From Pseudogymnoascus verrucosus (Eukaryota), in NCBI GenBank assembly GCA_001662655.1, contig KV460257.1: 64,000 bases of DNA. One strand, written 5' to 3'. A program made the position numbers and the translations under genes. This document shows positions 2,352 to 25,668 of the stretch, in pieces. The notes below the pieces were generated by a model. That model saw only the letters and a program-made list of their open reading frames with translations, was not told where the DNA came from and ran no database searches. Numbering within the stretch: position 1 is the stretch's first letter; the number at the start of each line of letters is the position of its first letter.

Positions 2352-4114
2352 TTAAAAATGCTCCTTCCAAAACGAGAAGTTAACATCCGGCGTCGTAACC
2401 TCCTTACACGCCTTCTTGATCCCCCTAGCCGCCGCACTCGGTCCGCAGAAGTACACCCCGACATCCGTCCTCATCGTGCCCTCCAGCCCACTCATATACG
2501 TGCGGTCCATAATACCCTCACGCATCCCCGTCAACAGGCGGTGAAAGTCGGGACGCCCGAAGTTCGTGCGTGTCTTGAGCTCAGTGAGCGGGTCAACGTC
2601 AGAGCCAACACTGTTAAGCACGATGTTCTGTGCGGTATCTGCGTCGAGGCGCTGTGTAAGGTAGGTGTGGATGCGCAGGAACTCGGTGCCAGAGGAGCCT
2701 GGGATGCTAGCAGCCTCGAAGGACTGAGCCTCGAGCGAGGACAGCAGGGTTTGGAACCACTCGAAACTAGTGGTGTCTTTGCAGACCCAGATGAACTCGA
2801 CACGGCGCAGACGCTTTGGCGGGTTTGGGCTGTTGCGGAGATGCCAGATGTTCTTGAGGATGGCAGCCCAGGGGGTGACACCGATACCGGTTCCGATGAG
2901 GACGGCGATTTCGTTGTCGAAGACATCTTCGGCGGGAGCACCGTAGGGGCCGTCGATGCGGAGCTTCGGCATCTGTTGTCCGTTTTGGAGGGCGACTTCG
3001 TACATGCCGTTGGGATCGACGCCGTCGTAGAGTTTGGCTTGGGCGGGACCGGCGCCGAGGGCGTCTCCGAGGGCGCGGGTGAAATCACCGACTTGGCGGA
3101 CGTGGACGGAGATGTAGGGGTCGAATGGGCAGGAGGTGATGGTAAAGGGATGCCATTGCTGGCGGGACACTGAAGGAACTTGAAGGAAGAGCCATTGGCC
3201 TGCCTTGTACTTCATCGATGGCTTCTTGAATTGGATCTCCATGGCGTCTGATAAGGCGTTAGTAGGAACTTGGTAATGAACGATTGTATTACTTACCATA
3301 TGGATGGCGAATGACGCGGATGATCTCCGTCTCTCTTCTCGCACGAATCTCACGGTAGAGGCGCTCAGCGAAGTAGAGGCCGCCTCCCCAAAGCTCCCAT
3401 CTCCATCCTTCGTACCCAACGCAGTGGTCCCAGAAGTCTTTTCCGGCAAATGGAGAGAAAGGATCCGCGGTGTCTCGCACAAAGCATCCAGTCGCATGCG
3501 TATATAATCCAAGCAAAAACGGGATAAATAGATGGTGCGTATACCAAAAGGTCTCAAAAGATTGTTGGCGAATCTTCGCATGTGCAGTTGTGTACATAAG
3601 AAGCATGCAGAGGAGCATGATATGTCCTGTGATACCACCGGCTTGAGCGTAATGGATCTGGATTGCGGTAACGGGACGAATCTGTGTCTTTTCGACGTTG
3701 AAGAAGTTCACGTAATGGGCCGAGACGTGGATGACCGTGTATACCAGCATCGAGTATGCGACCTGGCGATGGAACCATTGCGACTCGTCGAGAGGCAGGA
3801 ACCGGACCTTTGGTCTGACCCATCGTAATATGTTCCTGCACATCGGTAACAGAATCATGGCCCCATCGACCGATAGAACGAGACCCGCGCCTCGTGATAA
3901 CCACACCGAGTATGTCAATGTATTCAGCCCCGCTAACCTTTCGTCCATTGATTGCTTGTACCTGTAAAACGTTAGATGCTACTCAACTCCCACGCCAGAG
4001 GAAAACTACTCACCATCCCAAGGCGAATAAGCCGATGTGACCGCCATGGAACAAGACGTTGAAGACCAACTTCGTCCCCCACAGCTGATTCTTCACAGCT
4101 TCCAAAAACCCCAT
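2352..4114 (-). CDS. noxA: NADPH oxidase A (gp91phox-like), 2 introns
   Basis: ATG 4114 (MGFLEAVKNQLWGTKLVFNVLFHGGH). Haem-binding His residues (FHRQVAY, HVSAHY, YTHHLF), FAD motif HPFTITS, IDGPYG, NADPH motif GTGIGVTP, VYFCGP and C-terminal FWKEHF. No NoxB N-terminal extension. Confidence 0.95.
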
Positions 4115-6420
4115 AATTACTGCGTTCTATATCTTGCTCTGTCGTTTCGTATTAATGTCGTCCAGCGACTGCTCCCTGAGTATGTTCAGGGTATCCAAAA
4201 AGTATAGTTGAGAAATCAGAATCGACCTAGAGAGCGACTATCAAGGCACTCCTTGGCGATTAAGAATAAGACCACTGGGGTCGACGAAGTAAAGGACAAA
4301 GAATGTAAACACTGGCCCACGAAACCCAAAATATCGCCGGTATCACCAAGATTCAAGAAAGATGCGACCAACGGGGAGGGCGTCTGATAATAAAGGTTCC
4401 TGTCACAAGTTTCGGGACCGCGGCCAGTTGGTTACGGGGCTAAATCAGGACCAATACTATCTTGAGACACGGGATATGGTATAGTCTACGGCGATGGAGG
4501 GGTCCGCGCATGGGGTTCCTCGGAAACCCTCTTTGCTGCTCTTCCTGACAGGCTTGTCCCGTCTTGCGACCCTGGCGCAACGCCGTGACTGGCCGTTTAC
4601 TCGGATGTTCCTAAGCCAAGGTTTCGCGCTGTAGCATTCGCAAGAGATCAATCGAAAAATTCTGTATGTGGGTATAGATCGTGGTTCATCAAGGTCGTGA
4701 AGGGGTGTGTGCGCCAGGCGATGAGACGTGGAGTGTATGAGAAGTTCGGTCTGGCAGCGTGCCGAGTGTTTGGGGTTGCAGCGGCAGCTGGGGTCTCGAA
4801 GATGCTGTCAATGCGCACGAAAGGGGAAGGCGATTGTTGTTCGAATAGCGGGAGCCGAAAGATACGGAATCGATATCGTCGAGAGCAAGAAATAAATCAT
4901 CAATGGGGTCATGTCATGTCAAGAGAAGAGCAGAGGAGGTTCAAGAGTACATGAACTATATGGGACGAGGAGAATGGTCCCTGGTGGGACGAGGATCTGA
5001 TGTTGCATGGGTCAGTCCACTCGTGGCTTGGGATGGGCGCTTCGCGGTCCAGTTGAATTCGCGAGACCGCTGTATCACGGTCAATCACGACCACTAGGGT
5101 AGCAACGAGACAAGCCAAGGGCCAATATTCAAACCCACTCCTTGAGGACGGTACTGAATGGAGTAAGGGGAATTGCTGGTGTTATTTTGGTTCTTTGGTT
5201 ATTTGGTATTTGGTTATTTTGGGAATTGTTGGGAGTTGTTGGTTTGCTCATTGGGGCCTTGTTAGACGAAATAGCGTCTTGTTTCCCCAATGAGGTCGTG
5301 GCTTCGGCCGGTGCCTGGTTCTCCACGTGTGAAGTTCCTGGCAAGTCTGACGTCTGATGTCGGAAGTCTGATGACTGATCTATTTGAGATTATCTTGCCG
5401 CCCAGCGCAAACTCTATTCGTTTCGTCGCATAAACATCGTCGTGATCTATCCGATCCGAATGCCATGAAACGCTGCCGTGGGAGGTGAGACGGATGCTCC
5501 CTAGTGGCCCGCTTTGAACCCACAGCAGTGTTTGCGCTGCACGATGACGGCTATCACGAGATAGATTGCTTGACAGGTACAGCAAGGATAAAGTTTGATT
5601 GTGCAAGGCTCCCAAAGGCTCGCACGAGAACCGGGATAGATCTCACGGTTTTTCGTCGCTCACCTTATTAAGTGCCGTGATCCGTCGTGGCAGGTACCAG
5701 GCCGCTCCTGTCGGTTGTTCCTAGCATCTTACAACCCATTGGCTCTCAAGAGTTTATCTCATGAAAATAATAGGTTGCTTGCCGTAAAAGGGGTACCGTC
5801 GCCGCTACAACCCCCGTGGCGGACGCGTGCAATCCCCATGGCCGTCGCTATCGCCATCTGGCCGCCAACGAGTGCGTCGCTTTGTCATACCATACCTTTC
5901 AGAACTGTCTGCCACATTGCTGGGCGCGCATTCTGAGCCCACGACTCTTCATTTGGCACTCAATCATTGTCTACTACTCCCTTTCTGGGACTAAACATTA
6001 TGCAGACATGTCTAATATTTCGTAGGGTTGCACCTCCCATATTGTGACTAAACCAGTTATCACCATACACAGCAATTGTGGCTGGTGCATTGCTACGACC
6101 GGTGAGGTTTATGGCAATAACTAGTGTAGCCACAATATGCGAGTTGACACCACTCGAAGCACCCTACCTAAGACATAGTTGGATTGAATTTTAAGATATA
6201 TATAGGATTTACGGCAAGGCTATTCAGCTGTGATTCTCCAAGCTTTAAAGATCAACTATATCCACCCTTCTCCGAGGAACTAATATCTATCTATATACTG
6301 CCAAATATTGAGGAAATAGCCACGACACGTATTCAAGTAGTTTGGTTACTGTTGTCACCTACTAGGAGATTTTCTTCTTCTGGTCACTCTTCATAGTCAT
6401 CCCCTGATATAGGTGTGTAG

Positions 6421-7369
6421 TTGTACTCACCTCTGATGTCTCAGCCCCTCCCTGGTGCTCTCCCTGGTGGTGGTGATGTTACGACCCAGCTCCCTGATAG
6501 TGGTGATGTTGTCGCCAAGCGCCCTCTTAGTGGTGATGTTACCATCCAGCTCCCTGGTAGTGGTGGTGGTACTATCCAGAACCCCGCTGCTGGTGGGCTC
6601 CCTGCTGATGGTGTTACCGCCCCAGCTGTCTGCTATGCTATTTGCAATGAGTCCCCAGTCTCAAATTGTCGATTATCTCTCACATAATGGCTAGATAATG
6701 CTAGTATTGTGGCCCAGACCATGGTAAGGTCGCCTGCACTTTGCGGCCCGGATTCTGCTTTCATAACAAGTTATAACGCCTGCACGAAATGTATTGCGGA
6801 AAATAGATTTAAATCGGATGAAAGCTCCCCTCTCCCACAATTTGGAGAGGTTCTTAGTTACTGCAACTTAGCACTTGCTACTTCCACGGTCACCCTCACC
6901 ATGACAGATGGCAAAATAACGACAATTGTTTATATCGTTCCAGAAACGGCATCCGTATCAACTACAGGCTCAGCATCTTCACCGCCAGAGCGCGCATCAA
7001 CCGCCACCGCCACCACCTCCTCCTCGACTACATCCTCGACGACACCCTCGATGACATCCTCGATGGCATCCCCGACGATATCCCCGATGGTATCCCCAAC
7101 GATAACCCCGACACACCCCATTCATCAACAACGAGCAAAGCCTGGATAGCTGGCCCAGTCGTCGGTTCCATTGCCGTGTTGGCGCTCATCCTCATCTTTC
7201 TTCTTTACATTCGGAAAAGGGGTCAAAAAACAACTATCACGCATAATGAGTCGGGTTTACAGTATGAGAAAGCAGAGCTCCATGGCGACGATGTGATAAA
7301 GCCTACTTATGAGGTAGAGACTCATGAGATCCACGAGGTTGAAGGGTCATATCCTCATCCGGCCGAATG
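6421..7369 (+). pseudogene. Ser/Thr-rich single-pass membrane protein, frameshifted and 3'-truncated
   Basis: Cys-rich segment (CYAICN...CGPDSAFITSYNACTKCI) and a Ser/Thr stalk. A frameshift near 7120 separates the stalk from SKAWIAGPVVGSIAVLALILIFLLYIRKR (TM) and the tail YEKAELHG...HEVEGS. The tail runs directly into the antisense of the GH172 gene. The true start is uncertain. Confidence 0.6.
6445..6610 (+). repeat. ~30-bp degenerate coding tandem repeat (GGTGATGTTACxAxCCAGCTCCCTGxTAGT)
   Basis: About 4-5 copies encoding GDVTTQLPDS / GDVVAKRPLS / GDVTIQLPGS / GGTIQNPAA. A 12-bp TCCTCGAYGACA-type repeat also occurs at ~7021-7110. Confidence 0.8.
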
Positions 7370-8297
7370 GGAACGCATTCTTCTGCATGCCCCATCCCTG
7401 ACTAAAGTAGTCTTCACCACCGGTGCCGTGCATGCTTGGGGGCCAAGTGTCATCATCGATAAAGATCATGTCATCGCCCTCGCCCCACCACGTCCCTTGG
7501 AAATGCAGCACAGAGTGATTACATCCGATGAAGGCGCCTGCTCCTTCGGTTTCGAGAATGGTATAGTTGCCTTTGCCGTCCAAGTTAGGCACTTGGGTTT
7601 CGAGGCTGTTCGTTTGTGTGTTTTGTGCAGCCCACCCTTTCGTTGGGTTCTCTCGTCGCCAGTGTGCGTGAAAGTAGAGGATCTCTGAGGGATTGAACGG
7701 AGCTGGACGAAGCTCGTAGTCGATGTAAAAGTATTGGATGTAGGCGTTCTCGCCTTGGTTTTCAATCTCGATTCTTGCACGCTTGTTGAACGGCATAGGG
7801 ACATAGCAGTTGAACGCGGCATTTCCACCGAATTTCTTCTCTTCCGACGGCTTAACACTGACGGTAAATGGCGTAGACTGGAAATTGGCGGCCATAGAAT
7901 GACCCAAACAGAAGAAATCTCCGATGGGTGCTATGACATTAGGCGTCTCGGAGTCATCCCAGTACATCTTGATGATAATTTTTCGGTAATAATCTGGATC
8001 ATTGTCTTCGTAGTTCAGACCCAGAGCATTGTGGATCTCCATCATGGCAACGCCCGATTTCGAGTATGGGATCAGTCCGGGACCAAGAATGCGGCGACAG
8101 GCCTGAACAAACCACAAGTGAGTAATTTTGCCCGGGCCTTCAATATCACACAAAATGGCAGTCTCGCCTGGTTGGACGATAAAGGCGTCCTCGTTCAGCC
8201 CGGATTGATCCCAGCTGGAAATTCGAGCACTGCGCGCAACCTTGCGTTGCGCTGCAGCCGACATCAAGTCGCCATCAAGAAAGGCGGAGGTTGACAT
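7347..8297 (-). CDS. DUF2961 / glycoside hydrolase family 172 (difructose-dianhydride / alpha-fructofuranosidase / D-arabinofuranosidase family); intronless, probably C-terminally truncated
   Basis: Family motifs RISSWDQSGLNED, DIEGPGKITHLW, MYWDDSETPNVIAPIGDFF, NCYVPMPF, YFHAHWRRE, WWGEGDD and GTGGEDYF. Ends abruptly at GWGMQKNAFPF-GRMRI*. Confidence 0.88.
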   Translation of the reverse strand: MSTSAFLDGDLMSAAAQRKVARSARISSWDQSGLNEDAFIVQPGETAILCDIEGPGKITHLWFVQACRRILGPGLIPYSKSGVAMMEIHNALGLNYEDNDPDYYRKIIIKMYWDDSETPNVIAPIGDFFCLGHSMAANFQSTPFTVSVKPSEEKKFGGNAAFNCYVPMPFNKRARIEIENQGENAYIQYFYIDYELRPAPFNPSEILYFHAHWRRENPTKGWAAQNTQTNSLETQVPNLDGKGNYTILETEGAGAFIGCNHSVLHFQGTWWGEGDDMIFIDDDTWPPSMHGTGGEDYFSQGWGMQKNAFPFGRMRI

Positions 8298-8906
8298 GTT
8301 TGTAAATAGAGGAGTTGTCTCTTGGTGAATGGTAAATTGTAGAGCAGCGAGGACTCGATGATAATTTACTCGATGTGTGAGAGAATATGAATGGGAGAGG
8401 AAAGTCGAAAGGGGAGTTCAATGATGATAGTTATACTTTTCAGAAAGTGGGCTGAGAGTCGCCCGCCATTGACTTACATGACCACATGCACTTCGCTGAT
8501 GCAAGTTGCAAAGACGAGGATCCTGTGAATCCACTCCATGATACCGCAACGAAAGACGCGAGTGCAGCCGATTTGAAGTCATACCAGCGCTGGTGTGGGG
8601 ATTCTAATTCTGTAGCCGGCGTCTTGGAAGGGGGGAGAAGCGCGACAGCGTCCGGACATCTCATCGTTATCGGAGCAACCATCCCTATTTCCGCGAAGTG
8701 AGGAGTGGGTGGGGCATTTCCCCACATCCAAAACTTGGGGCACTGCGGGGTAACCCTGCTCGGAGACATTAACCCCGCTTGGCAGTCGTCTACCACACCA
8801 GTATATTTAACTTCTCGCGGACATCCTGCCTTTACCCGCTGATGCCTTCTCGTCCTGCAGAATATTTGTCCCTTCACCTCGGAAGCAAACCCCGATAGTC
8901 CTCAGT

Positions 8907-11067
8907 ATGAAAATGATGGAGCAGGATACACCCCATGAATATGATGGCCAGCGGAGCAATACAACTAGTCCCCGAGGCTGTTCTTCTCCACCACTGTCGC
9001 AACCTGTGGCCCCACGATCTCGACCGACCCTCCGAACAAGGACAAGAAAGAAATCAGCCATTGCGTGTAATACATGCCGTGCTAGACGGACAAAATGTGA
9101 CAGCCAGAGGCCCTCATGCTCGTACTGCCAGTCTCGTAACGTCAACTGCCACTACCCACAGCCTGTAGCAGCTCCAGAAACTAGGTATGAAAGCCCTTAG
9201 GTTGCCAATCTCTTCTTGCAAATATGCTTAATACTAGTGTCTTTCTTCCACGAGTAGAACAAGTGCTAACGTAACGCTAGCAGATATGAAGTTGAGCTTT
9301 CTACCATCCGTCAACGTCTCGATCACCTAACTAGTATTCTTGAGGGTAGCTCCTCGCCGAGGCCCCTACCTGAAACTAGCGGAGCAGTGGATTCCACGAC
9401 GACAAGAGAACAATTAACTGATTTTGGAAATACCCCATATAAACTGCTCAACACGCGACGCATGATGGCTGCCTTAGGCCTAGGAGAGGATATTGTCGAT
9501 GAGCTTACTAGGCTAGAAAGGATTCCTTTGGCATCCCTGGGCGCTACTGGCGCTTCTCGGTTATGCTTTGTCCAGCATCACCAAGCTGCTAGGTAAGCTA
9601 CTACGTTTTCTAGAATATTTACTTATAATGTGGCCTAATACCCATGTTTATAGCGCCCTAGCGGCTTTCTTTGAGAACGTCCATATCTGGTATCCAATCC
9701 TAAGCCCTGGATTTTCTAAACAGTACCTTAGCATCATATCCGGGCCGTTGACACCATCTCCCAATTCATGTCTTGTCCTACTAGTGGCTGCAGTTGGACT
9801 CTTGGCCCAGGAAATTGTTTCCAATGGCGAGCTCATCGAAAGCACACACAGCTCGTACTTTGAGGCTGCAATGACAATGTTGCCAATAGTCGTGTCAGAC
9901 TGCGAGTTAACTAGCGTAAAATGTTTAGTTCTAATCAGCATCTACCACTGCTGTCTTCTCAAGCCTTATCAGGCACATAACTACTGCCTTATTGCGTCCT
10001 CCAAGATACAAAATCTTCTCAAAAGGTAGGTGCATTTATACTGCATAGATGACGCTTAGTATGGACTAATGTTGAAACTATAGTTGTGCTAGCATAGAGC
10101 AATGCACTCCGGAGACCCACGAACAGGCAGTTCGAGTTTATTGGGCTGTTTTATTGCTCGAAAGGTGAGCTTGGTCACTCCTACCTAATCTTGCAGTTTT
10201 CTAAAACGTTTAGTGAGCTTGGCGTGAATTTTGATGTTGCAAATAGCGGCATATGGACCCTAGATGAACACGTCGGACTTCCAGACTGCAGCGACACATG
10301 CCAATATGACATTGGGGTTGGGTCCCCTCTCGCAGTATTGTCTCCTTCAAGCGTATCATCAACAGCTAGTGCAGACATAAATAAAGTCCAATCGTATTTC
10401 CTCGCGGAGATTTCTATGAGACGCATGTTACGCAGATGTAACACTGCGATTGGACGAGGTGCAAACGGAACAATATGCTATGCGCCAGGAATCGCAGTCG
10501 AGCTTGAATTACAGTTGGATGAGTGGTATAACTACCTACCGGAAGTAATTCGATTCCATCTAGATTTCGCCACTACGACGTTTGAAGTTCCGCTAGATGA
10601 ATGTCCGCTCCGTAACTTCCTGCGCGTGCAGTATTACTGCTGCAAGGTTGCAATATACTGGCCTGCAGTATACCAGGTGATGGAAGATGGGATTGCGAAT
10701 GGACAACTCCTTGATCATTGCCAAAAATTCTTTGCGTCGTATGTTCAACTCATGCCAAGTATCATAGCCGCTTTCCACGGCTGCATCGTGAATAGGTGGA
10801 CAATATTTGCAAGGTAAGAGATGTTATCCCTTCGCAGCAGTCTCAAATATCTATTACCAAAAATAAAAATAACCTTATAATAGCATATTTACGAACACTA
10901 TGGCTGCTATGAAAGCTGCAAGCACTAGTTGTTTGTATGCCAGTAGTTCTCCGGAGCTATACCAGTGTTTTGCCTTAATAAGAAATGTTGATGAGCGTGT
11001 CATTGAGAGAAGCGCATCTTTGTCTTTGCTAAGGAACGATTTGATGGAGAAACTTGTAGCCGGGTAG
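8907..11067 (+). CDS. Zn(II)2Cys6 transcription factor with fungal TF middle-homology region, multi-exon
   Basis: ACNTCRARRTKCDSQRPSCSYCQSRNVNCHY; AFFENVHIWYPIL; RVYWAVLLLE; ELELQLDEWY. The last exon ends at TAG 11065-11067. Divergent from GH172 and convergent with GH32. Confidence 0.9.
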
Positions 11068-11147
11068 TAGGAAGAAAGGCACCATGAAAATCTGCTGCTA
11101 GGAAAAGCTACGGGATTTGGTATATCTTAATTATTTATTCTAAAACT

Positions 11148-13042
11148 CTAATTTTTAAGCTGTACTTGGCCCAACGGTTCCATGCCATTTAATCCGTCCC
11201 AGAGGCTAATCTTCTCGAATATTGCACTGTTGTCCAACCCCGTTGCAAATGCAGCGATACCATTATTGCCCTCATAATCACAAGTATACACCATTGTTGC
11301 AAGTGCAAAGCGATCATTGGCATAGACTTCGAGAATGTCTCCATCCGAGATGATACGGATCCGAAGTCGCTCTTGTTCCTCCTCACCCGTAGATGGGTCT
11401 CGGGTTTTAAAGAGAGTAAAGGGTCCCTTCTCTGGGAATCTATTGATGTCTTTGTATGATGTTGAGGCGCTGCGATCTACGGTGATCGTTTCGGCGAGGA
11501 GAGAGAAAAACACAGTGGTGCGAATCGATAAGTCTTTGCTGTAGCGCAGGTGAAATCCTACAGTTTCACAACCTGTCGCTACTGATATTGTAGCTTGGAG
11601 CTCCCATGTTGGGGTCGAGGTAACGGCTAGATGTTCATGCTGTATTGAGTTTGGTCGAGGCAGGAAAGTCTCATTCTTCTCATAGGACCAGAAACAATTA
11701 TCGCGCAGACGGCTCATTTCTGAGATGGGTCTGATGCCTAGCGTGTGTAATGTTGTGGAATCGTTCGGTTCTAACTGACGTTCCACGCAGGTAATCTCAG
11801 AAATTTGGCTGCTGAGTGCGCTAATGACGTTTGGGATCGAGAGAAGGAACACTTCGCGTGGGATGGATAAAGCACCATTCCATCCCTTTCTTCGAGCATG
11901 TTCATCCGTGCAATCCTCTTCGGGGATCCAACCATGCACTATCTGCTTATTCGACAGAGGGTCGAGGAAAGAGTTTGCCGCATAGTAACTTCCATGGTCG
12001 AGAATGCCGCCGAATTTGAATTGGAGCTTGATATTGTCTCCTTTCTTAACCAAGTTGCCGGACATCCAGACCTGCTGCCTTACTGTCCTCGGGGAAGTAG
12101 CCGCAGGGAAAATGGAATTGTTAATGTGATCACGCTCAACTTCCCCTTCTGCGCCAATGATGAGAAACTCCCGCGATACCGAGTTGGATTCGAGTGTCAT
12201 GAAATTAGTGCATTCCCAATTGATACCATAATTACCACCCCACTTCTCAGAGGGCTGGTAACTGATTGATAAATCCACCAAAGAACCAAGATAGTCCCAT
12301 TGCCCTAAGGCTTCTGGCTGGATCTCATACAGAAATGTAGTCGGACCTAAACCCGCGATACCGCCAGAGACAAGACCATAAAGCGATTTCCCATTCTTCC
12401 CACGAAGTCGATCCAAAGCAGGCCAATTTGCAATATACGGGTCGCGAAAACCTGTCACGTCAACATCTTGAGGTTCCCCATTTAGTATTGGATTATCGGG
12501 TGATTTTGCCCATGTTGATCCGCCATCATCCGATGTTGCTATGCCCAACCCTGCTGCATTCCGTGGGTATGGCAGCGTGCTCCAATGAAAAGGCAACTTG
12601 AACACGGAGGAATAGAAAACCGTCAGTTGCTTGTTATTTGCATTCGCAACAGGAGCAAAGCAACCCGTAAAGACCCCATCTTGATCATACCCTTTACCTG
12701 GACTTAGTGCGGGCTGGGTTGGCATGTTATTCCAGGTTAGAAGGTCTTTGCTAGTTACATGAACCCACGACATGTTTCCCCATTCAGTGCCATAAGGATT
12801 ACCTATGGCAATAAAGTAATTGTATTAGCTACGAATAACTCGTTGCGACAAAGCATTGCGTAGAGACACTTACATTGGAAGAAGACGTGATATAGCCCAG
12901 TACCTGGATCATATCCTGGGGCACACGGATCGTTTATCCAACAGGGCGCGGTAATATGGATCGTTGGCCGGCTGTAGTGGACGGTTTGGAGGTTTGTCAA
13001 GATGCGATTTGCTGTCTTTGCTTCGATCTGTATCTGGGGCAT
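11148..13042 (-). CDS. Intracellular GH32 beta-fructofuranosidase (invertase/exo-inulinase-like), 1 intron
   Basis: Catalytic motifs WINDP, FRDP and WEC, plus FTG and a C-terminal beta-sandwich (LEVYANDR). No signal peptide. Intron at ~12803-12872. Confidence 0.92.
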
Positions 13043-13782
13043 AGTGGCTCGCCTTCCAGGACTCGTTTTTAAAGCACTATGAAATGTCGGCCGCTTGAAA
13101 ATGAAGTATACTCTAACTGCCCCCTCGACCTTTAAACTTAATCTACTCTGAAGTCTTCAAGGAGAGACGTAGGTGCTTATAGTGAATATTTAGAACTCGA
13201 CTAGCTATTGTAAGTGGCTTGAGCTCAATACACGTGATGCTGGTATTGCTGCATCAACTAATGTGCGTGAGTATTCAATCGACTCAGCTAGAAGCTACTA
13301 CTGGAAATTGCATCGCGGTGGCCGTCTGTTGCTCCGCGATGGGACAGGTCAAGATGACTCGCGTTTTCAAAATTATGGGCCCTCGCGGAGGATTTATCTC
13401 TCTCCGCGAGATCTCCGCACTGGCCCAGGATTCTATGAATGAACTGTGGCGATGGGGCCGTTCTAGGCGTTACGCCAGGTCATAGCCAACCCCACATTTC
13501 TTTAGCCAATTTTTACCCCGCGTTCTTCCCAGCGAACTGGCTGACCTTACCAGACCCGACTGCATGGCTAACTTGACCAAGTCTGGGGTTCATGGGGAAA
13601 CAATATGATACATGGACTCCTCAGGAACAAGTAAGTCCTATGATTTACCTATAATAACGCTATCATCAGCTTCTAATGCTTGAATTATTAAGTCTCGGAC
13701 AGCGACCATCCTCTCATAACTTCAAACTCCTAACTTGCTGATACTAAGACAACTAAATCAGACATTACTCAACCTCGTTGCG

Positions 13783-15912
13783 ATGACTCTGGTTCAAGGG
13801 TGCGCATAAAACGAACCCCTTTATGTGACAATATTAACGCCGTCTCATTGCAGTGTCGACTACTCAGTCGTCAATCCGGAGCAAAAATGGAAAATTCTCA
13901 GGTCGCAATCACGCTTCGCTTTCTGGGGTGAGTGTACATGGTTACTACAAGTCCCGTGTTTGATAACTAACCTTATACATAGCTTTTTGGATTTCCACTG
14001 GTGTCATAATGCAAGGTTTTGATATCGTAGCCGGTGGTCAGCTAGCTGCTCTGCCTGCTTTTCGAGAGCAGTTCGGAACTCTTCAACCAGATGGGAGCCA
14101 TTTGATCCCAGCTTATTACCTTTCAGCCTGGAACTCCATTGCTCCTGCGTGTGAAATCGTGGCTACTTTTATCTTTGCACCTATGCTAGAGAAGTTTGGA
14201 CGCAAACCTGGGATCCTTGCTGCGTCCATTATATCCGTCGCCGGTGTCCTGCTTCAATAACTATCTAAGGATTGGAAGGTACATTTAGCTGGACGTGGTG
14301 TTAATGGTAGGTTACTCTTCGTGCATCATACCGATTGACGAGCTATTATTAACAAGTCTGCCTAGGTATTGCCATTGGTATTATGTTCACTATAGCTCCT
14401 TTATGGATTGGCGAGACCTGTCGTCCTGAACTCCGTGGCTTCTTTCTTTGTTTCTTCAACACTAGTATTGTGTTTGGACAATTTGCCATGTACGTTCCTC
14501 GAGACCGAAGAACTTTGCTAAAATGCTAATTGACTTCAGCGTCGTGGTATCGAAAGGAAGCAGCGGCATAGACGGTAAATGGTAGGCCTCTGTTGCACAC
14601 GATTGAGGGATGACGCTGACTTTAACTTTGAAGGCAGTGGTGGCTTCCTGTCGTTGCCATGTATATATTCCCACGTAAGTCATCCAACATCGAGGAGCCC
14701 CGAACATTCCCCTACGGCGCTCGCTCCTTTCCATTAGTATAATCAAACTAACAACAAAACTCATAGTTATCCTTACTGTCGTCTGGCCTTTTTTTCCTGA
14801 ATCACCATACTGGCTCGTTCGCCAGAATCGCACCACCGATGCCAAGAATGCCCTCCGCCGCGCCTATGGCTTCAAGGGTGCCGACTCAGCATTTTATGAC
14901 ATAGAAGTCCTCCGCATGGAAGAGGAGATACGAATTACAACTGAGTTGCAAGGCGGTGTTGCTGCTAAACGTAACACTATCTTAGGTGTTAATGTATCCG
15001 CCGAAGCCGAATGCTTCCGTGGCATAAACCGCAAGCGCACGTTAACTGCAATTTTTGCTGCCAGCGCACAGCAAATGATTGGAGCGACTTTCGTGATTGG
15101 TTATGCCACATATTTCCTAGAACTCATCGGGATTACTAATTATTTCAATGCTTCGGTTGCGCTGTATGTAGTCATGCTTATAGCGAGCATGGCTGCGTTC
15201 CCACTTACCGAGATCTTTGGACGACGTGTATTGCTAGTTTGGCCTCAATTTGTTCTATGTTTCATGTTACTGATGATTGGAATTATGGGGTGTGTGCCTA
15301 ATCAGGTCCAAGCAGGTTATGGCATTGTGGCTTTCATCTATCTGTGGGCCATCATCTACCAACTTTCAATTGGTGCTACTGGGTTCGTCCTTGCATCTGA
15401 AATTGCAACTATGCGGCTTCGCGGGGCAACTCAAGGTCTGATCACGATCACCAACGCGTGTTGGGGATTGATCATGCAGTTTACTGTCCCTTATATGGTA
15501 AGTCCACAGACTTCTTGGCCTTATTAGAGCAGCCGTTCTTGGGTGCTAACTGCGACCTTAAAGATAAACCCAGACGCAGGGAATCTTGGAGGAAAAGTGG
15601 GCTTCATTTTCCTTGGGACTGGACTGATAGCAGCTATTGGAGGGTGGTACCTGTACCCTGAGACGAAAGTAAGTCATTCGGTCTCTAATATCCATTCGCA
15701 GGACATGAAGTCTTTCGAAACTAACAACTAGAAAGGGCATCTCATTTGAGAAACTCGATGAACTTTACAGCTTAAAGGTTGCACCTCGACATTTCAAGAA
15801 GTTGTCTAGGGAGGCAGGTATTGGACACATACGTGACAGCCCACAGCAGGTCGAAGCAGAGGTGATTGCGAACAAGACGGACAAAGAGCACGTAGAGCAT
15901 TCGAGCGTTTAA
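13783..15912 (+). pseudogene. MFS sugar porter (maltose/alpha-glucoside permease-like) with one in-frame stop
   Basis: [52 protein letters not shown] and YPETKG motifs over several introns. Premature TAA at 14258-14260 (LLQ*LSKDWK). Confidence 0.85.
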
Positions 15913-16727
15913 TGGCGAGTTACCTTTTTTGGAAGCTATAGTATGGTACTTTCTAGTGCGGGGTATATCAGAATGCGCGTGGCTAACAGGATATAAAGCC
16001 CTTAGTTCCCCGCTCACCCTTGCCTCGTCGTCACCACACTTCCGGCTAGGACCGTTGCAGGTGGATCATCCTGAGGAAAATATACTCTAGCAGGTGGCAA
16101 TTGCTTCGCGCGAGCACAATTGCTAGAGTAGATATAACTTGGATGAGGTGTGAGTATTTCAACTAAAGGCATCGGATCGACTTTGACTTGTACTACATTA
16201 TATTATACTTTTCAAGTAGTAGTGGTGGTGTTTAGGCTGCTGAATCCAGCAGCTTTGCACTGCTTTATACTATTTATTGAAACATGCAATAATAATTCAT
16301 GCATACTATACTCTGACCAACGCCCATGCTGCTAATATACCCCCCCAAACAGTCTCTACAGATGCCGATATAGCCGCGCGCTGGGCATGCAACATGTTTA
16401 AAAAGCAGGCGGAAGAATTATCCCACCTTCCATTTCGGAACAATGATAACAAGCTTCGGAACAACCCCGCCGCCGTCTCCTCTGCCCCGCGTTTCCCCCA
16501 CAACATGCAACGTCGTCCTGTATGTAGTATCGGACGACGATCTTCAAGTGGAAATATAAAAGACTCGTAGATTCCACCTCGGGCTTATCTTTAGTAATGT
16601 AGCTAAGAGCTGAGATTTTCCTTAACTCCAGGCGTCGGTTTCTGAGCTGTAGTTGACTCGGTTGCGCTGTAGCCTTGTTTGTTCGTTTCGTGCTACTCTT
16701 CTACACGCTGCCTGAAATACTACTGTA

Positions 16728-19353
16728 ATGATGAAGTCATTTTCATGGCTGGTTGTGCTCTCCCCGGCTGCGTTGCCAATGGTTGCGGGCAAGGGGTTCT
16801 GGTCGAGTACTCCAGCCACATTTCAACATCTTATCAAAGAAACGTACCCCGTTGGAAATGGCAGGCTAGGAGGTATGAGAGTCAATAATTTGGCAGTTTT
16901 TCAGATTTTTGACGAATTCAAGCTATGCCATTTGGTCCTCCCGGAGCAGAAAAAGTGGTTCTCAACATTGACTCGCTTTGGTCCGGTGGCCCATTCGAAT
17001 CATCTGTGAGTGTGATGAACACTTTATAAGGATCAAACTAATATTTGCCATGAGACATACACTGGCGGAAACCCAACATCCCCTCTTAATGAGTACCTTC
17101 CGGGAATTAGAGATTCAATCTTCCAGAAAGGCACAGGAAGTAAGCTCTCCATTCTGAAACCTTGCCTTCCATTATTAGTCTTTATGTAGCCTGCGCTGAC
17201 AGATTCCAGACGTCGATCAGCTTCTTGGAAATGGAGACAATTATGGAAGCTACCAGGTGTTTGCCAATTTATCAGTTGTCATCAATGGCGTGAGCTCTGC
17301 AACCAGCTACAATCGGTCTCTCGATTTCAACACGGGCATCCACACTACGGCCTATACTGCAGACAATGGGAACGATTATAAATCAACTGTGTATTGTTCC
17401 TATCCCGATCAGATTTGTGTCTACAGCCTTTCATCTAACGCTGCTCTTCCCAATATTACCATTTATCTGGAGAATCAGCTTACATCTGCGCCCTATTCTG
17501 CATCTTGCGAACGAAATGACACCTCTGTTATTCTGTCAGGCGTTACCCAGGCCGGTCCTCCTCAAGGAATGCAGTACGAAGGGAAAGCCCAATTAATAAC
17601 TGGAACAGGAAAATCCATGCTTCATCGCGGCGCTCACACGAGACCTCTGTGCAGTGGCTCATCGCTAATTATACCATCCGATTCTAAAACTCGGACACTT
17701 AGTCTCGTAATTGGTGCTGCTACGAATTATGACCAACTGGCTGGCAACGCCGAAAGCAACTTCTCATTTGCAATTCCAGGATCCGATACAATTGACACTC
17801 ATTCTTTGCTTGATCCAATTATCTCAGCAGTCACGTCACCGGCAGCGTCAAAGGCAGAAAGCACACTCCGACGAGCCCACATTACAGACTACCATGACTT
17901 GGTGGGCCAATTCACCTTGGAGCTTCCAGATTCTGCAGGGTCATCCGGTCTAGAAACATCAGTTCTTATTAGCCAGTATAACTCTTCCGGCCTAGGCGAC
18001 CCATATCTCGAATCTACAATATTTGCGCTGGGACGCCATCTCTTTATCTCCTCTTCGAGAGATAATTCCCTCCCTACAAATCTAGCAGGGAGATGGAGTG
18101 AGACAATTGGAGCTGCATGGAGTGCAGACTATCACTCCAATATCAACTTCCAAATGAATCATTGGGGCGCTGATCAGACTGGACTGGGGCGTCTCCAAGC
18201 CTCGACCTGGAACTACATCCAGAATACTTGGGTGCCTCGAGGGACCGAAACCGCACAGCTTCTATATGGGGCTCCAGGATGGGTTACGCACGATGAAATG
18301 AACATCTTCGGGCACACAGGCATGAAGGAGGATGCTCAATGGGCCAATTATCCAGTCGCTGCCGCATGGATGATGCAGCATGTCTCCGATCATTTCTCCT
18401 ATTCGCAAAACGTTACCTGGTATCGAGATCAAGGATACCCGCTCCTCAAAGGCGTCGCCCAGTTCTGGCTTTCCCAGCTTCAACCAGACAAATACTTTAA
18501 TGACGGCAGCCTTGTGGTGAACCCATGCAACTCAGCGGAACATGGTCCTACTACATTCGCATGCACGCACTATCAGCAACTAATTCACCAGCTCTTGACC
18601 GATATCAGGTCAACGGAGGCTTTGCTTCCAGATACCGAGGAGGAGTTCATTGCTAACGTCACAACCGCCCTGAAAACTCTCGATAATGGCCTGCATATCG
18701 GTACCTGGGGCCAAGTCAAAGAGTGGAAGATCCCGGATTCTTTTGGTTATGACTTTGAGAACGATACCCATCGCCACCTCTCTAATCTCGTCGGATGGTA
18801 CCCTGGTTATAGTATGTCCTCCTTCCTTGGGGGATACACGAACACAACTATTCAGGATGCTGTGGCTACAACCCTTTACTCAAGAGGACCAGGATATGCC
18901 GACGCAAACGCAGGTTGGGAGAAAGTCTGGCGATCAGCTTGCTGGGCCAGATTGAATAATACCGATGAGGCTTATTTTGAGCTCAGATATGCGATTGATG
19001 AGAATTTTGCCTCGAATGGCTTGAGTATGTACAGCGGACAGAATCCGCCTTTCCAAATCGATGCCAACTTCGGGATTGTGGGAGCAATGCTAAGCATGCT
19101 GGTTGTGGATTTGCCGAATGGCAATGCAGTGGAGAATCGGACAGTGGTATTGGGACCAGCTATTCCTACGAGATGGGGCGGTGGGTCTGTTAAAGGACTG
19201 CGACTGAGAGGTGGTGGACTAGTCGACTTCACATGGGACCTAAATGGGCTTGTTGTAAGTGTGAATGCAAGCGGAATAGCCAAAGGTCTTCGGATTGAGA
19301 ATAAGGAGGGGACTATCCTCGTAGGATCTCGATTACGAACTGAGATACTTTAG
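16728..19353 (+). CDS. Secreted GH95 alpha-L-fucosidase-like glycosidase, 3 introns near the 5' end
   Basis: Signal peptide [20 protein letters not shown]. Motifs [56 protein letters not shown] and [11 protein letters not shown]. Confidence 0.92.
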
Positions 19354-19509
19354 TCCCCTTTCTCTTTTCAGTAACTTATACAATCATGAAACTACTGTTC
19401 AAAACTCCTGCATACTAATTTAGCTATGTAACTTTAAACTCCTTTTGTGTAGCATTGTATCCGATTCCATTATAGAATCTCAACAAATAACATTTGCCTG
19501 ACTATTTTC

Positions 19510-21028
19510 TTAACCTGTACCACCTTGCATGTTGATGGTAATGGACTTTGCTTCCAGATAACTCATTAGACCAGCACGGCCACCTTCTCTTCCTCCATTC
19601 CCACTCTCTTTCCACCCTCCGAAAGGCATGTCGATGTTTCCCCCAATGCTCGCGTTGATTGATACAGTCCCAGCCTCAATCAACTTGCTGACCCTTAGAG
19701 CTAGCGGGATATCCCTCGTGAACAAGTAAGCAGCTAGTCCATAAGTTGTATCGTTCGCGAGTTCAATTGCTTCCTCCACGGTTTTAAAGGTTCGAATTGC
19801 TAGAGCCGGGCCGAATATTTCATCCCTCCAAACCGAAGATTCAAGAGGAGGGTTATTCATGATTGTTGGCTCGATGTAATTCCCCTTCGACTTTCCGCCA
19901 GCGAGAAACTCAACACCGTCCTTCTTCGCTTGCTCAAAGAATGACACAACTCGGTCCTTTTGTGCAGTGTCTGCTAAGGGACCTAGAAACGTTGACGGAA
20001 GCGCAGGGTCTCCAAGTGCCCCTTTGAACATGTCGAATCGGGCCTTCAAGCCCTTAGTAAACTCCTCGGCAATCTCTTCCTGAACCAAAATCCGTGTTGC
20101 AGCAATGCAGACTTGACCGGAGTTGAAAAGGAAGTTTTGGGAGGAGTGAACAAGTGCATTCTCGAGATCGGCGTCTTTGAAAATGATTGACGGGGATTTA
20201 CCACCAAGTTCTAGAGTAACGCGCTTGAGATTACTATTCGTTGCCGCGATTTGTACTTTCCTGCCGGATGAGACGGATCCGGTGTAACTAATCTTCTTGA
20301 TGCCCATGTGCGATGCCATGAGGGCTCCTGTAGAACCATCACCACTCAGCAGGTTGATAACGCCAGGAGGAAACCCAGCTTGGACAATCAATTCCCCAAC
20401 CGGAAGTGAGCCCAGAGGTGATTTTTCCGAGGATTTGAAGATGAATGTATTCCCAGCAGCAACCGCTGGTGCGATTTTCATACAAAGCATGTAGAGTGTA
20501 GCATTCCATGCCGCAATACCAGCGCATACTCCGAGAGGGTCGTACCGGATCAGCTTGTACGTCTTGTCATCGCCCTCGGGAACTAGTTCTCCGGGAATCT
20601 TATCGCAATACCCAGCATAATGGCGCCAGGTAGAACCCATGAGACTGCCCAAGGGAGCGGCCAGTGCTACCGGTTGGCCCATTGCAATAGTTTCTAGCTT
20701 CATCAGACTCTCGAAATTTTCATCCAAAAGGTCAGCAAGTTTTAGCATGCATTTGGCCCTCTCAGAACCGGGCATTATGCTCCATGGGCCTTTGAAGGCT
20801 GCTTGTGCTGCAGCGACAGCATCGTTTACGTCCTCTTCGCCACCAGAGTGTACCGCATCCGTGACGATCGAGTCATCAACGGGATTACGAACAACCACGT
20901 AAGTGCCAGATTTAGCAGACACATACTAGAGAAATTGTAGGTATTAGACTATATGCAAGCAATGGTAATGGCGAGTATGCACTGACCTCGTTGTTGATAA
21001 AAAGCTTGGTTTGGAAATTTTGAGCCAT
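19510..21028 (-). CDS. NAD(P)+-dependent aldehyde dehydrogenase, 1 intron
   Basis: Exon 1 MAQNFQTKLFINNE (ATG 21028). Motifs AWN, KSSEKSP, YTGS, TLELGGKS, catalytic FNSGQVC, EIFGP and PFGGWKESG. Confidence 0.93.
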
Positions 21029-21668
21029 CTTTGTAATGAGACCAAATTGAGTGTTCACTTTGAGGAAGAATATTAATGGGTTTTATTTCAGGCTGTGCTT
21101 ATTATCGGGATTACGACGTCTCTTTAATCCAACGCGGGGTTGCAGTTACTTGAATAGATCATAGTTTAGATTGGCCCAAATTAACGACGTGGTGCGTCAT
21201 CTTGGAAAAGGATCGAGATCCTAGTTCCGCCCGCAGCGTAACACCGCCCTCAGCGCAAATATCTTCATCTCCGAATGATCGGTGCTCGAAGAAGGAATGT
21301 CCTTGTCCCATACTGTGGACGAAAGCTCTGGGCTAGAGATATCGATATCGGCGGAAGTTGAACCTTGCTGCCACGTTCAAGAGTCCCGTACTCTAGAGCT
21401 AGGGGAAGATAGTGAGCAGAAACGGTGGGCTGTTAAGTTTTGACAGGGAATTAAGATGGGGCGACTAGTTGTAGATAACCTATGTCGGTTCATAATTCTA
21501 CTCATTCTTAGTTTGATTCGATACAGCACCATTGCTGCTGGTTCATATCGAGAATTTTTTATCGTAGCAGGAGGCAACTGCTTCACGCAAACACATTCGC
21601 GGAATAGACATGAGTTGGATGAGATGTGACTATTTCTACTAAAGGCACCTGATCAACTTTGACATATA

Positions 21669-24600
21669 CTAAATTTCCGCCTCTTTCGCGCCATGTTGCC
21701 GTAAAAGTTGAGCGATATCTGAGTAGCCGCGATTATTAGCCTCCTGCAATGCGCTGCCAAAACCCTCGCGCATGTAATTAGCATTAGCTCTTGCTTGAAG
21801 AAGCAGCTCCACTATGTGCTTTTTCCCGCAGCTAGCTGCCGCCGAGAGTGCGTTTCCATAATATCTGCCGCCTCCTCTATTTATATCAGCTCCTGCTTGA
21901 AGAAGCATCCGGACTATTTTCTCATGCCCATGGTAAGCTGCCTCCTGCAATGCGCTGCTGTAAGTCCCACCTATGCTATTCACATCAGCTCCTGTGTCAA
22001 GAAGCATCTGCACTGCCAAAGCATTCCCATGCTGAGCTGCCGCCTCCAGTGCGCTGCCGAGCTTTCTGTTCCCGCTATTCACATTAGCTCCCCACTGAAG
22101 AAGGAGCTTTACAACCTGCACACTCCCACCGACAGCTGCTGCATACAGTGCGTTGCTATAATCATGGCCACCTCCGCTATTTGCATCGGCCCCTGATTGT
22201 AGAAGCAGCTGAACAATCTCATATTTTCCAGCAAATGCAGCAGCCTGTAGTGCGATCCCATCGATCTCACACACGAAGTTTACATCAGCCCGGAACTGGA
22301 GAAGCAGACGAACTATCTGCCAGTTCCCTTTACTAGAAGCCGCCTGCTGCAGTGCTCTGCCACCTTCTATGTCTACATCACCCCCTAAATGTAGTAGTTT
22401 TTGTACGACGGCCGTCAATCCTACTGTTGCGGCCATAATGAGTGGTGTCTGGGTGCACCTATCATTATTGCCGCAACAGTAGGATACAATATCATGGCGG
22501 GCACCATTTTCGAGTAGTAGCAGTGCAACGTCTATGTGACCAGAATCTATAGCTGAAAGGAGTGGAGCTAACCTAGGTTTGTCTCCAGGAAAATCGATAT
22601 CTGCGCCTGCGGCGATGAGATGCCGGGCAACTGCGAGGTATCCCTTGCCTGCTGCTAGTTGCAGGGGACTGCCGTGTTGTCTTCCTACATCATTGACATT
22701 TCCCTTGATTTGTATTAAGTTCAGGAGGAGGTCAGGTAGATTTTCGTTCGATAGTATGTAGATTAGACTGTCGTTTGGATGATAGACTGTAGGGCTACCT
22801 CTGGGGTTATAACTGAAGTCATTATACACCATCATCCATTTTTGAATTGATGTCCTATCAGGGGCTTCGAAATCAGTGAGAAACCCTCCCTGGTCTATAT
22901 CGCAGCTTTGGGCGACTTCAGCGTGAGCGAAGACGTACCGAACAGCATACCACGCGAATGGAAAGTGGCGCAAAATATCATCCTTTAGGTTCGGCTTTGT
23001 CCTCAGTCCATTAAGTAGTGGGGTCAGTCTTGGCTGCGTAGGGCTCCAACGGTTATCCTTAAACACGCCCAGTGTCATGTACTGATAGCAGCAATGTTTT
23101 AGTCGTTCCTCGCTGAATCCCCTAACATTGATCGCAAAGTTGGGTTCGAGCTTGGTGAAGCCATCATGAAGAAGAAGAAAGTCGCATACGGACTCATAGA
23201 TGAACTGGACAGTTCTATCCATCTTGGTTACTTCTACGAGCCCCTTCGAGATATTGAGGATAAAATTTTCAATGCCCTCGGAATTAATTTCGTCAGCATC
23301 CCATTTTTCTATTGCTGTTGGCTCTGTTCCTGCTAGAACGGCAAAGTATAGCTCCTCTGGGTTCAGTGGCCTCTTAGCGAACAAGACCCATTGAAAGCAC
23401 AGAATTGATTTGTACTTCGAGTTGGGGTCTGATTTTAGGATGTTGGTAAACAGGTCGTCGAGCTCCTTGGGGACACTGTCTAGTAGTTGTTGTAATTGGG
23501 CAGGCTTGCCTTCGCCACGACGGAATGCCATGTTTAAGAGTTCTACTACCAACCTAACCCATATAAATACCCCCGATGATCTGCTGCACAATTCACACTT
23601 AATAAGAGCTACGTGTGGGCTGTAGGGCACTCTGAATTCGCTGTCGATGTATGTCATAATGTCTTGATTATGGCTATATTGCTTCTCGAGGGTTAATTTA
23701 ACACCCCACCGAATCAGGATATTTAGATAGTGGCGCGTCGATAGGCATATGTGCAGAGGTGATCCTAATGACACTGCAGTATGCCCGATGTTCTCGAAGA
23801 ATTTGACTAATTTAAGCACCTCATCGTCCTTGCATTCGTCAAGTGCGTCGATAAACCACATAACTGGATACTCTTGAGGTGTCTTCATAATTGTAATTAG
23901 AATCGCCTAGAGCTCGCCAATATTCCACTCATAGACCTCGCTATGCTTTATCTTGAAGGAGAGTAGATGTGAGAGGTCATCTAGGATAGTTGGGGTTTTC
24001 GAGATTAATTGGAGTAAGACTGAGCGGTACATTCCTAGTATTGACCTTTCAAGTTCAGCTCCTCGCGCGTTGAAGAAGAACGTGATAACTGTAGATGGCA
24101 ACGCCGCATTAGTAGCGGCTTCGACAGCGAGCTTCATAATCGTCGACTTTCCAGATCCTGGCTTCCCTTTAATCTAGATGAAACCATTATGTTCGGAGAC
24201 AAGATTACTGTCAAGCCACTAGTCGTATTCAGGTGTGGAAAACAGCCAATCGCACGTTGTGCTAGTTGCTGTCTCGATATTAAAGAACCGCGTCTTCTTC
24301 TAATTGAACTTCAATGAGTCTTCGATAGCCTTTTTCTCCTTTTCAGTTAACTTTTTTAGATTCAGCTGCCCTTTGATACCACGAGGGATAGTGCTCATAG
24401 CAGTTAACGTCATGCAATTTAGCTTCGCAAGAACTTCGTCATAGTCGCTATCGTTCGGAGTGAATTTAACCAACGTTGAATGATCTCTCTTCATTCCTAT
24501 GCAATTATGGGCTTCGTTCTCCCACGGGCGGGTATGTCTTGCGGAAGAGCTATCAACTAAGATGCAAAGCGGTCCCCCCATATTCCATACATTGTTTTCT

Positions 24601-25668
24601 ATCTTCTGAATGTTAGTGCGTGAAAGTAAAAACAGCGTACTGAGCTTACAAATTTTGCTGTTTGCAACATCTCGGTTTCGTAGTAGCAGAATATTTCTGA
24701 ATCTTTTCTGTCAAATGCCTTAGGGAAGTCTCGAGACTGATTTCGAAGGAAATGTGACTCCTTTCCGAGAGTGTGAAGTAGAGCTTGGTTTGGCTGACCT
24801 GCAACCATTGGTACAAGAGAAGCTACCTCCATGCCTTGGCTTGGGACGCTAAAGAAAAGACCGCCGTCCTGGTGTTTCTTATCGTTCTTCATTTGTATCA
24901 TTGCCTCTTTAACGATTAATCCCCCAAGGCTATGGGCTATAAATATCAAGGGCACTGTTTTCATTTGGGAATTGGTCGAGCCTGGTGCCCTCTGAGCAGC
25001 GATGCTTGCTCGGAACGAGCTCGCTAATGATTTAATATCTTGAAAAGAAGCACTGCCATGAAGTTGAGTGTCGTAGCCGTATATCATGATTTGGGCACCT
25101 AGAAGACCTCGGGGTAGTGAGTCACACAACCACATATGTTGCCCATCTCGCGCTTTAAATGACCCAAATGCATGTCCCCTAAGTCCTGAGATTGCAATAA
25201 TGCTACGCGTTGTTAGATATTTGCGATATATATCTGAATATTGACTTATACGTACTCTATCTTGTGTTCATCTAACTTACTGAAAGATCGAAGTACTGTG
25301 ATGCCTTTGAAATGTGAATCAACTGTAATGATTTGCTCTTGGGGAATTATATCGTCGTCATCATCAGTGCTACTATTTTCACTATTATTTTCAGTGGGTA
25401 TAGGAAAATGCCATTCTCCATCGGCCCTTGGGGGGAGGAGTATCGGCAGGCAGCTAAAGCATACTGTAGCCACCCTGGTCCTCCGGTTCGGACTGATAGC
25501 GATCGACCTGAGTTTGACCGAGTTCCCAGCCTTGTCAAGTTGCAAGACCGTTTGGAGTAGGGACTTGACTTGCTTCTGCTTGTAGTCTATAGGGATTCCC
25601 GTAACCCGGTATGCGGCATTAGCTTCATTTTTGTTTGAGCCTATCAACTGCGGATCCAAGGTCCCCAT
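21669..25668 (-). pseudogene. Fungal NLR: SesB-like alpha/beta-hydrolase + NACHT + ankyrin repeats, inactivated by RIP-type stops
   Basis: SGLRGHAFGSF, MWLCDSLP and FIAHSLGGLIVKEA (hydrolase); GKPGSGKST (Walker A) and FIDALDEC (Walker B); about ten ankyrin repeats. In-frame TAGs at ~23907, ~24175, ~24220 and ~24300 fit CAG>TAG or TGG>TAG changes. Confidence 0.9.

Follow-up and report, generated by a model that had tools for sequence, protein, structure and literature searches.

A conserved fungal gene cluster predicted to degrade difructose anhydride I, and its decaying copy in Pseudogymnoascus verrucosus

A 64,000-nucleotide stretch of contig KV460257.1 of Pseudogymnoascus verrucosus (assembly GCA_001662655.1; the whole stretch is called the window below) carries genes for a family GH172 glycoside hydrolase, a Zn2Cys6 transcription factor, a GH32 beta-fructofuranosidase and a sugar porter of the major facilitator superfamily (MFS). 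Together they are probably the decaying copy of a cluster dedicated to the catabolism of difructose anhydride I (DFA I), or of a close alpha-fructofuranosyl dimer such as diheterolevulosan II (DHL II). In the proposed pathway, of which we infer the substrate, the direction and every step, the sugar porter would import DFA I, the cytosolic GH172 enzyme would open its alpha-(2,1) bond to give inulobiose, and the GH32 enzyme, which is of the Aspergillus niger SucC type, would split inulobiose into two fructoses. By draining inulobiose GH32 would pull along a GH172 reaction whose equilibrium, in the bacterial type enzyme, lies 89:11 towards DFA I. The Zn2Cys6 factor would turn on both divergent promoters upon DFA I, perhaps through TCCGCG sites.

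Results

Gene content of the cluster

The window DNA is fungal, and its GH172 is 97–99% identical to proteins of several Pseudogymnoascus isolates. The four genes form two divergent pairs, GH172/regulator and GH32/porter (Table 1), at the place and in the arrangement given by the original prediction, which had read them as a cluster for difructose dianhydrides or other fructosides. The regulator gene model, with five introns, is identical to the annotated protein P0661, and all introns of the sugar porter are GT-AG. The GH32 protein has both its N- and C-terminal domains and intact WINDP (residue 35), FRDP (175) and WECT (252) motifs. Both hydrolases had been said to lack signal peptides, and they indeed have no hydrophobic N-terminal stretch; the best 10-residue hydropathy is 0.1–1.5 in 12 of 12 proteins, as judged by a crude scan of the first 35 amino acids rather than by SignalP.

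The active site of GH172

The best structure match of the window GH172 is alphaFFase1, the DFA I synthase/hydrolase of Bifidobacterium dentium (E = 2e-104), and a full-length congener matches it over residues 17–454 (E = 2e-148). Entries of the arabinofuranosidase type score at best 2e-32 with the window protein, which is truncated, and 7e-46 with the full-length congener. The residues described for alphaFFase1 in PMC8605356, a source available to us in part, were mapped onto the window protein via the phmmer alignment, and all eight mapped catalytic and subsite residues (E85, K147, Y187, W267, E270, E291, D292 and W298) are kept. The nucleophile E291 and the acid/base E270 of the DUF2961 double jelly-roll correspond to E295 and E273 of the window protein, and the +1 subsite residues E85 and K147 to E87 and K149. 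The −1 subsite (Y187, W267, D292, W298) and the calcium ligands (N31, D33, N272, T288) are also accounted for, the N272 position being D in 45 of 45 fungal and 37 of 39 bacterial rows. The 45 named fungal GH172 proteins do not vary at E291, D292 and W298; at the E85 position 44 have E and one has D, and at the K147 position 41 have K and four have R. The available text of PMC8605356 reports that E85 and K147 mutants lose activity on inulobiose and keep activity on p-nitrophenyl arabinofuranoside (pNP-Araf).

On sequence, the enzyme is assigned to the DFA I synthase/hydrolase (alphaFFase1) subfamily. The original prediction had allowed a wider range of substrates. That range is to be narrowed: alpha-D-arabinofuranosides, DFA III and levan are unlikely because the type enzyme is inactive on DFA III and inulin and because E85 and K147, the mark of inulobiose specificity, are present. 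A system for the alpha-D-arabinofuranosides of bacterial cell-wall arabinan is conceivable in so far as GH172 includes arabinofuranosidases and alphaFFase1 itself cleaves pNP-alpha-D-Araf. It is nevertheless very improbable: the match to arabinofuranosidase structures is far weaker, full-length orthologues combine the +1 residues with a C-terminal helix of the alphaFFase1 type, the hydrolases have no apparent signal peptide, and the partner gene encodes a fructosidase.

An unlikely but more serious alternative is that the natural substrate is some other alpha-D-fructofuranoside, such as DHL II, the dianhydrides of heated or acidic sugars, honey and plant litter, or a plant glycoside, and that activity on DFA I is incidental. 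DHL II and simple alpha-fructofuranosides are substrates of the type enzyme too, K147R or E85D exchanges are found in some fungal clades, and GH172 is present in Ascosphaera and Monascus, which are fungi of sugar-rich habitats. Against this, the clade of the window protein keeps E85 and K147 exactly, and a GH91 inulin-fructotransferase-family gene is among the genes of the closest bacterial loci (see below).

Linkage of the genes across fungi

Linkage was scored from the locus tags or accession numbers of the matches to GH172, GH32 and the regulator, with three cluster look-ups. The 41 other assemblies counted, by hand, are those with complete tags for both GH172 and a partner; one more, with an incomplete GH172 tag, was left out. 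They are a sample, drawn from the cluster members among the matches listed (at most 15 per cluster). In 37 of these 41, from four fungal classes, the orthologous regulator, the orthologous GH32 or both are found at a distance of at most two locus tags from GH172, so that the co-localisation expected of a fungal catabolic cluster is found among the matches listed. Ten assemblies (four of Pseudogymnoascus, two each of Exophiala and Fusarium, one each of Cladophialophora and Saxophila) have GH172, regulator and GH32 on three consecutive tags or accessions: V499_02919-21, VF21_04032-34, VE02_01381-83, V490_02462-64, LTR84_002788-90, Z519_07657-59, PV11_04161-63, LTR77_001928-30, KAK2671520-22 and KAJ4031293-95. 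In 27 further assemblies, from Pseudogymnoascus, Cadophora, Elasticomyces, Fusarium, Thyridium, Penicillium, Aspergillus and Purpureocillium, GH172 is within two tags of one partner. The four misses are FOPG, BHE90 (where the regulator is a paralogue, 41% identical), A. ambiguus and a second P. lilacinum copy. By a looser proxy, of the 94 longest-contig sizes among the regulator matches, 35 turn up again among those of GH32, and seven sizes are shared by all three lists.

Contigs show the same directly. Single contigs of runs X2, X3 and X5, from three studies, span all four genes; the fungal metagenome locus L002 has GH172 and regulator divergent, as in the window, and L003 has GH32, GH172 and a transporter (70% identical) together. 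The porter belongs to a distinct fungal sugar-porter subfamily, the next best of 58 own-genome matches being 33% identical. Conserved physical linkage across taxa is thus observed for this cluster, with the transporter included in fewer cases. The Talaromyces DUF2961 protein listed as 'fused' to a fungal transcription-factor domain in PMC8812541, of which part was available, would be a merged gene model of neighbouring GH172 and regulator genes.

That unrelated sugar genes merely happen to be neighbours might be entertained for a genome with 58 sugar-porter matches and about seven GH32 loci. The probability is negligible, since these orthologues are neighbours in 37 of 41 assemblies from four classes, with a gene order that has been rearranged between lineages. 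Two other GH32 loci of the genome (G000:C45:15400-22300 and G000:C38:9300-12400) have sugar-porter matches within a few kilobases and are probably sucrose or inulin clusters. GH172 orthologues without a visible partner also occur in Lipomyces (several copies), Cryptococcus gattii-group yeasts, Trichomonascus and Ascosphaera (protein clusters P0034, P0055, P0067 and P0080).

Bacterial relatives and their gene context

The nearest bacterial GH172 proteins are 66–68% identical to the fungal one over the full length. Of 48 close genome loci, 35 have a GH32 gene no more than 7 kb from GH172; of 31 distant ones, none does. In Jiangella the locus reads LacI-ABC-GH172-GH32-PfkB, and Pfam scans of 58 open reading frames from six loci find LacI, ABC sugar transport and PfkB genes. 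A GH91 inulin-fructotransferase-family gene stands beside GH172 in eight of 79 genome loci. The one in the Streptomyces locus L082 is closest to PDB 8hsn ('Fructotransferase'), which we take to be a DFA I-forming enzyme. According to the available part of PMC10941961, GH91 enzymes produce DFA I from inulin, which would give the sugar a natural source outside caramel. A GH91 (PF18835) profile search of the P. verrucosus genome was blank, as were its controls. Two Streptomyces loci (L084:2986-4419 and L094:535-1959) have a second DUF2961 gene beside the first.

The system most similar to the fungal cluster is the DFA I locus of B. dentium, which comprises, in the available text of PMC8605356, a LacI regulator, the GH32 BBDE_2039, the GH172 alphaFFase1 BBDE_2040 and an ABC transporter; the same text quotes unpublished growth of B. 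dentium, with such an operon, on DFA I. Both systems combine a regulator, an importer, an intracellular GH172 of one subfamily, with the same catalytic and +1 residues, and an intracellular GH32. They differ in that the fungal cluster has a Zn2Cys6 factor instead of LacI, an MFS porter instead of an ABC transporter, and divergent pairs instead of an operon. The fungal GH32 is also unlike the B. dentium type: it is a native paralogue, 24–31% identical to 17 operon GH32 proteins.

Origin of the cluster

In a 106-row FastTree phylogeny all 45 named fungal GH172 proteins fall on one side of a branch (support 98) inside Actinomycetota. A 38-row IQ-TREE phylogeny (LG+G4) nests the fungal clade (100/99) within branches of Streptomyces, Jiangella, Solirubrobacteraceae and Nitriliruptor (100/99 twice), and forcing the 20 ingroup bacteria together is 73 log units worse (approximately unbiased test, AU, p = 0.0007); the 38 rows were picked by hand, the tree was rooted on two distant GH172 proteins, and the model was not a mixture model. 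The bacterial origin suspected in the original prediction is thus borne out by the phylogeny. The intronless gene, which had been offered as its sign, is no evidence for transfer because a fungal orthologue (L015) has introns; the tree is the evidence. Base composition was tried as a sign of recent transfer and gives none, the third-position GC of GH172 (0.59) being intermediate between that of its neighbours (0.46–0.49) and of myosin I (0.67).

The other three genes appear not to have come along. Window GH32 groups with three fungal paralogues of its own genome (97, FastTree, long branches), apart from the 17 operon proteins, and regulator and transporter belong to fungal families. Since GH32 sides with the native fungal enzymes, one gene appears to have entered and the cluster to have been assembled in fungi: the trees indicate that a single bacterial GH172 was acquired once and combined with three fungal genes, so that the operon's logic was rebuilt from fungal parts. 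By the same evidence the window cluster would work like the bacterial DFA I operon without being a member of it. Within the fungi the GH172 tree departs from the classes, with Leotiomycete, Eurotiomycete, Dothideomycete and Sordariomycete rows sharing a branch (100/98) apart from Fusarium and Aspergillus, and this mismatch points to hidden paralogy or later transfer.

Relation to A. niger SucC and the A. fumigatus DFA synthase

Window GH32 is 57% identical to the A. niger match P0142, which clusters with An06g02420, and lies in the same GH32 clade; the two are assigned as orthologues. An06g02420 is sucC in the supplement of PMC5701360. There sucC is flagged as not expressed, with values of 13–24 in every column including inulin, sucrose and fructose, and it is silent in a second study too (PMC10142829); both sources were available in part, and what they contain describes SucC solely as an unexpressed invertase. 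The name SucC is also used in the accessible text of PMC11865173 for an A. niger fructosyltransferase, which may be An06g02420 or another protein. In five A. niger or A. awamori assemblies the sucC-type GH32 is adjacent to GH172. That the gene stays silent on inulin, sucrose and fructose is consistent with an inducer that is rare and dedicated, and a missing inducer is our preferred reading. The A. niger InuR regulon (inuR, sucB) likewise pairs a Zn2Cys6 regulator with an intracellular GH32 for fructans, but it answers sucrose and inulin, has no GH172 and, in the published material available in part, does not switch on sucC. Its genes presumably cluster with a transporter.

A. fumigatus has a difructose-anhydride synthase (EC 3.2.1.134), for which AFUA_5G00510 is proposed as the gene in the available text of PMC8605356. 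This protein (XP_748288.1, P0632) matches the full-length congener at 74% identity and the window GH172 at 80%, and falls in the same fungal clade. Because of this orthology the GH172 enzyme of the cluster is partly known already. A literature search for AFUA_5G00510 and nearby locus identifiers returned PMC8605356 only. The activity dates from the 1980s, and the parts of the literature available describe no cluster, regulator or transporter with it. The statement that no fungal system of this kind had been characterised consequently stands for the cluster and falls for the enzyme activity, which is on record. The bacterial operon and enzyme, the fungal GH172 homologues and the A. fumigatus activity are known; in a search of open-licence PMC and bioRxiv full text, neither the fungal cluster with its regulator and porter, nor a connection to sucC, nor an actinobacterial origin turned up.

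A candidate regulator site

Four 7-mers are common to both window promoters and the promoters of L002 and L003 (shuffle mean 0.31; 0 of 200 shuffles as high). TCCGCG, which contains the CGG typical of Zn2Cys6 sites, occurs 2, 3, 5 and 5 times in the two window promoters, L002 and L003, against 0.29, 0.24, 0.78 and 0.28 expected, and 20 times in the whole window against 25 expected. Because the motif was picked from those same promoters, it hints at a regulator site and is offered as a lead only.

Decay of the window copy

As the original prediction had suspected, the window copy is decaying, and two lesions can be located. The window GH172 has 316 amino acids, compared with 456 in congeners. 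Residues 1–311 are native, five read-through residues follow, and the last 145 residues are lost, which by the domain limits of alphaFFase1 in the available text of PMC8605356 amounts to about half of jelly roll 2 and the C-terminal helix. A deletion of about 1.43 kb took the 3' ends of both GH172 and its convergent neighbour. Record 6 of run X2 maps as window 4755–7366 to record 1–2614 and window 7364–17246 to record 4043–13922, so that it has about 1,430 extra bases at the junction, with a 3-base overlap; runs X3 and X5 have 898 other letters between 6079 and 7364 where the window has 1,284. The contig of run X1, which is possibly the source of the window DNA and hence not independent, is identical to the window over 3500–22500, and the truncation is therefore not an artefact of the final assembly. 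Neither a second GH172 copy nor the missing 3' end was found elsewhere in the genome, of which the window GH172 is the only one.

With half of jelly roll 2 and the C-terminal helix gone, the product is almost certainly non-functional, and the gene is interpreted as a pseudogene of an alphaFFase1-subfamily member. Congeners that are 99% identical retain the complete second jelly roll and long C-terminal helix that the window copy lacks. The sugar porter has a premature TAA at codon 123, where all four homologues compared have Q or Y-A-A-Q-type sense codons (three have Q in that column). Across its 544 codons there is no second lesion, and its identity to two homologues of full length is 74% and 67%. 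Regulator and GH32 are both intact. Of the four genes, GH172 and the porter are thus taken to be dead in this strain; relatives keep a full-length GH172.

Table 1. Features of the cluster in the window.
Feature	Position	Strand	Remarks
GH172 DFA I synthase/hydrolase orthologue	7347..8297	-	PF11175 (GH172/DUF2961), E 3.8e-63; intronless, 3'-truncated
GH172 deletion junction	7364..7366	.	3-base overlap; alignment to X2 contig
Divergent promoter GH172/regulator	8298..8906	.	TCCGCG at 8690 and 8816, candidate regulator sites; motif chosen post hoc
Zn2Cys6 regulator	8907..11067	+	PF00172, PF04082; 607 aa, 6 exons, intact
Zn2Cys6 regulator exons	8907-9184, 9284-9592, 9654-10025, 10084-10164, 10214-10813, 10884-11067	+	
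Intracellular GH32 beta-fructofuranosidase	11148..13042	-	PF00251, PF08244; 607 aa, one intron (12803-12873), intact
Divergent promoter GH32/transporter	13043..13782	.	TCCGCG at 13333, 13384 and 13403
Sugar porter (MFS)	13783..15912	+	PF00083; 9 exons, 544 codons, inactivated
Premature TAA in sugar porter	14258..14260	+	Codon 123

Surroundings of the cluster

The cluster and other variable genes lie in a block of lower GC content (44–51%) at 5700–26000, between an NADPH-oxidase-like gene and myosin I. The convergent neighbour cut by the GH172 deletion (6437–7363, + strand) has a frame change near 7110–7150 and codes for a Ser/Thr-rich, single-pass membrane protein with a Cys domain. The genome has one copy of this gene, run X2 carries it, X3 and X5 lack it, and neither Pfam nor NCBIfam gives a match. 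A short dispersed repeat of about 35 bases (16221–16256), which matches several other contigs in each run, marks the cluster's right edge. Adjoining the cluster are a GH95 (alpha-L-fucosidase family) gene with an apparent signal peptide (16716–19353, + strand) and an aldehyde dehydrogenase gene (19510–20925, − strand); both were considered as cluster members and rejected, with no match in 80 metagenome loci including the fungal L002 and L003. A lipase-like/NACHT-like/ankyrin repeat gene lies in several pieces at 21669–25812 (− strand), where X5 is rearranged.

Discussion

For the direction of the pathway there is an alternative to a dedicated catabolic cluster for DFA I. The genes could serve mainly synthesis: on inulin, inulobiose would be imported and locked as DFA I, a private store or compatible solute, to be reopened later by the same two enzymes. 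Apart from the equilibrium given above, the kcat/Km of the type enzyme is 0.813 on inulobiose and 0.0378 on DFA I, the A. fumigatus enzyme makes DFA I from inulobiose, and soil bacteria are suggested to use a related sugar, DFA III, to keep inulin carbon to themselves (PMC10941961, available in part). This alternative is nonetheless quite unlikely: with a cytosolic GH32 under the same control, inulobiose would be broken down and the store emptied; inulin does not induce sucC in A. niger, going by the available part of the expression data; and the PfkB-family kinase at the end of the bacterial versions speaks for catabolism.

Several observations weigh against a catabolic cluster conserved in the form proposed. 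The type enzyme is about 20 times more efficient on inulobiose, the synthetic reaction, than on DFA I, and the A. fumigatus activity is described as a synthase. Many of the 41 assemblies, which cover four classes, are strains of a few genera. Transporter linkage outside Pseudogymnoascus amounts to three cases, namely L003, PFLUO_LOCUS559/560 and four proteins with a shared 20,014-base longest contig. No regulator was found in the 14.6 kb of L003, a contig that ends 235 bases past the transporter start, and in the tag-based survey no partner gene was seen for the GH172 proteins of Cryptococcus, Lipomyces, Monascus and Ascosphaera. No A. niger protein is named among 107 regulator matches, though the GH172 and GH32 tags are adjacent in several A. 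niger assemblies. The silence of sucC may therefore reflect a regulator lost in A. niger, perhaps from between GH32 and GH172, and not a missing inducer.

With DFA I catabolism still preferred, a broader scenario can be put forward tentatively, at somewhat less than even odds. Soil Actinobacteria would lock inulin carbon as DFA I by a secreted GH91 enzyme and reopen it with GH172; an early fungus would have taken up GH172 from them, and the Pezizomycotina would have built a regulated cluster of importer and hydrolases around it to eat that sugar. DFA I would then be the missing inducer of sucC, and the Zn2Cys6 factor a DFA I sensor acting on TCCGCG.

The cluster would stand for a fungal sugar pathway that is widespread and uncharacterised, and for which candidates for the substrate, the importer and the regulator can now be named; P. 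verrucosus has a broken example of it, and many moulds carry a copy. One locus would join two old loose ends, the proposed gene of the A. fumigatus DFA synthase and the silent A. niger invertase sucC, and fungal biotechnology could profit from a promoter that is tightly silent until DFA I induces it. The cluster would also be a clear case of the logic of a bacterial operon rebuilt around one transferred gene.

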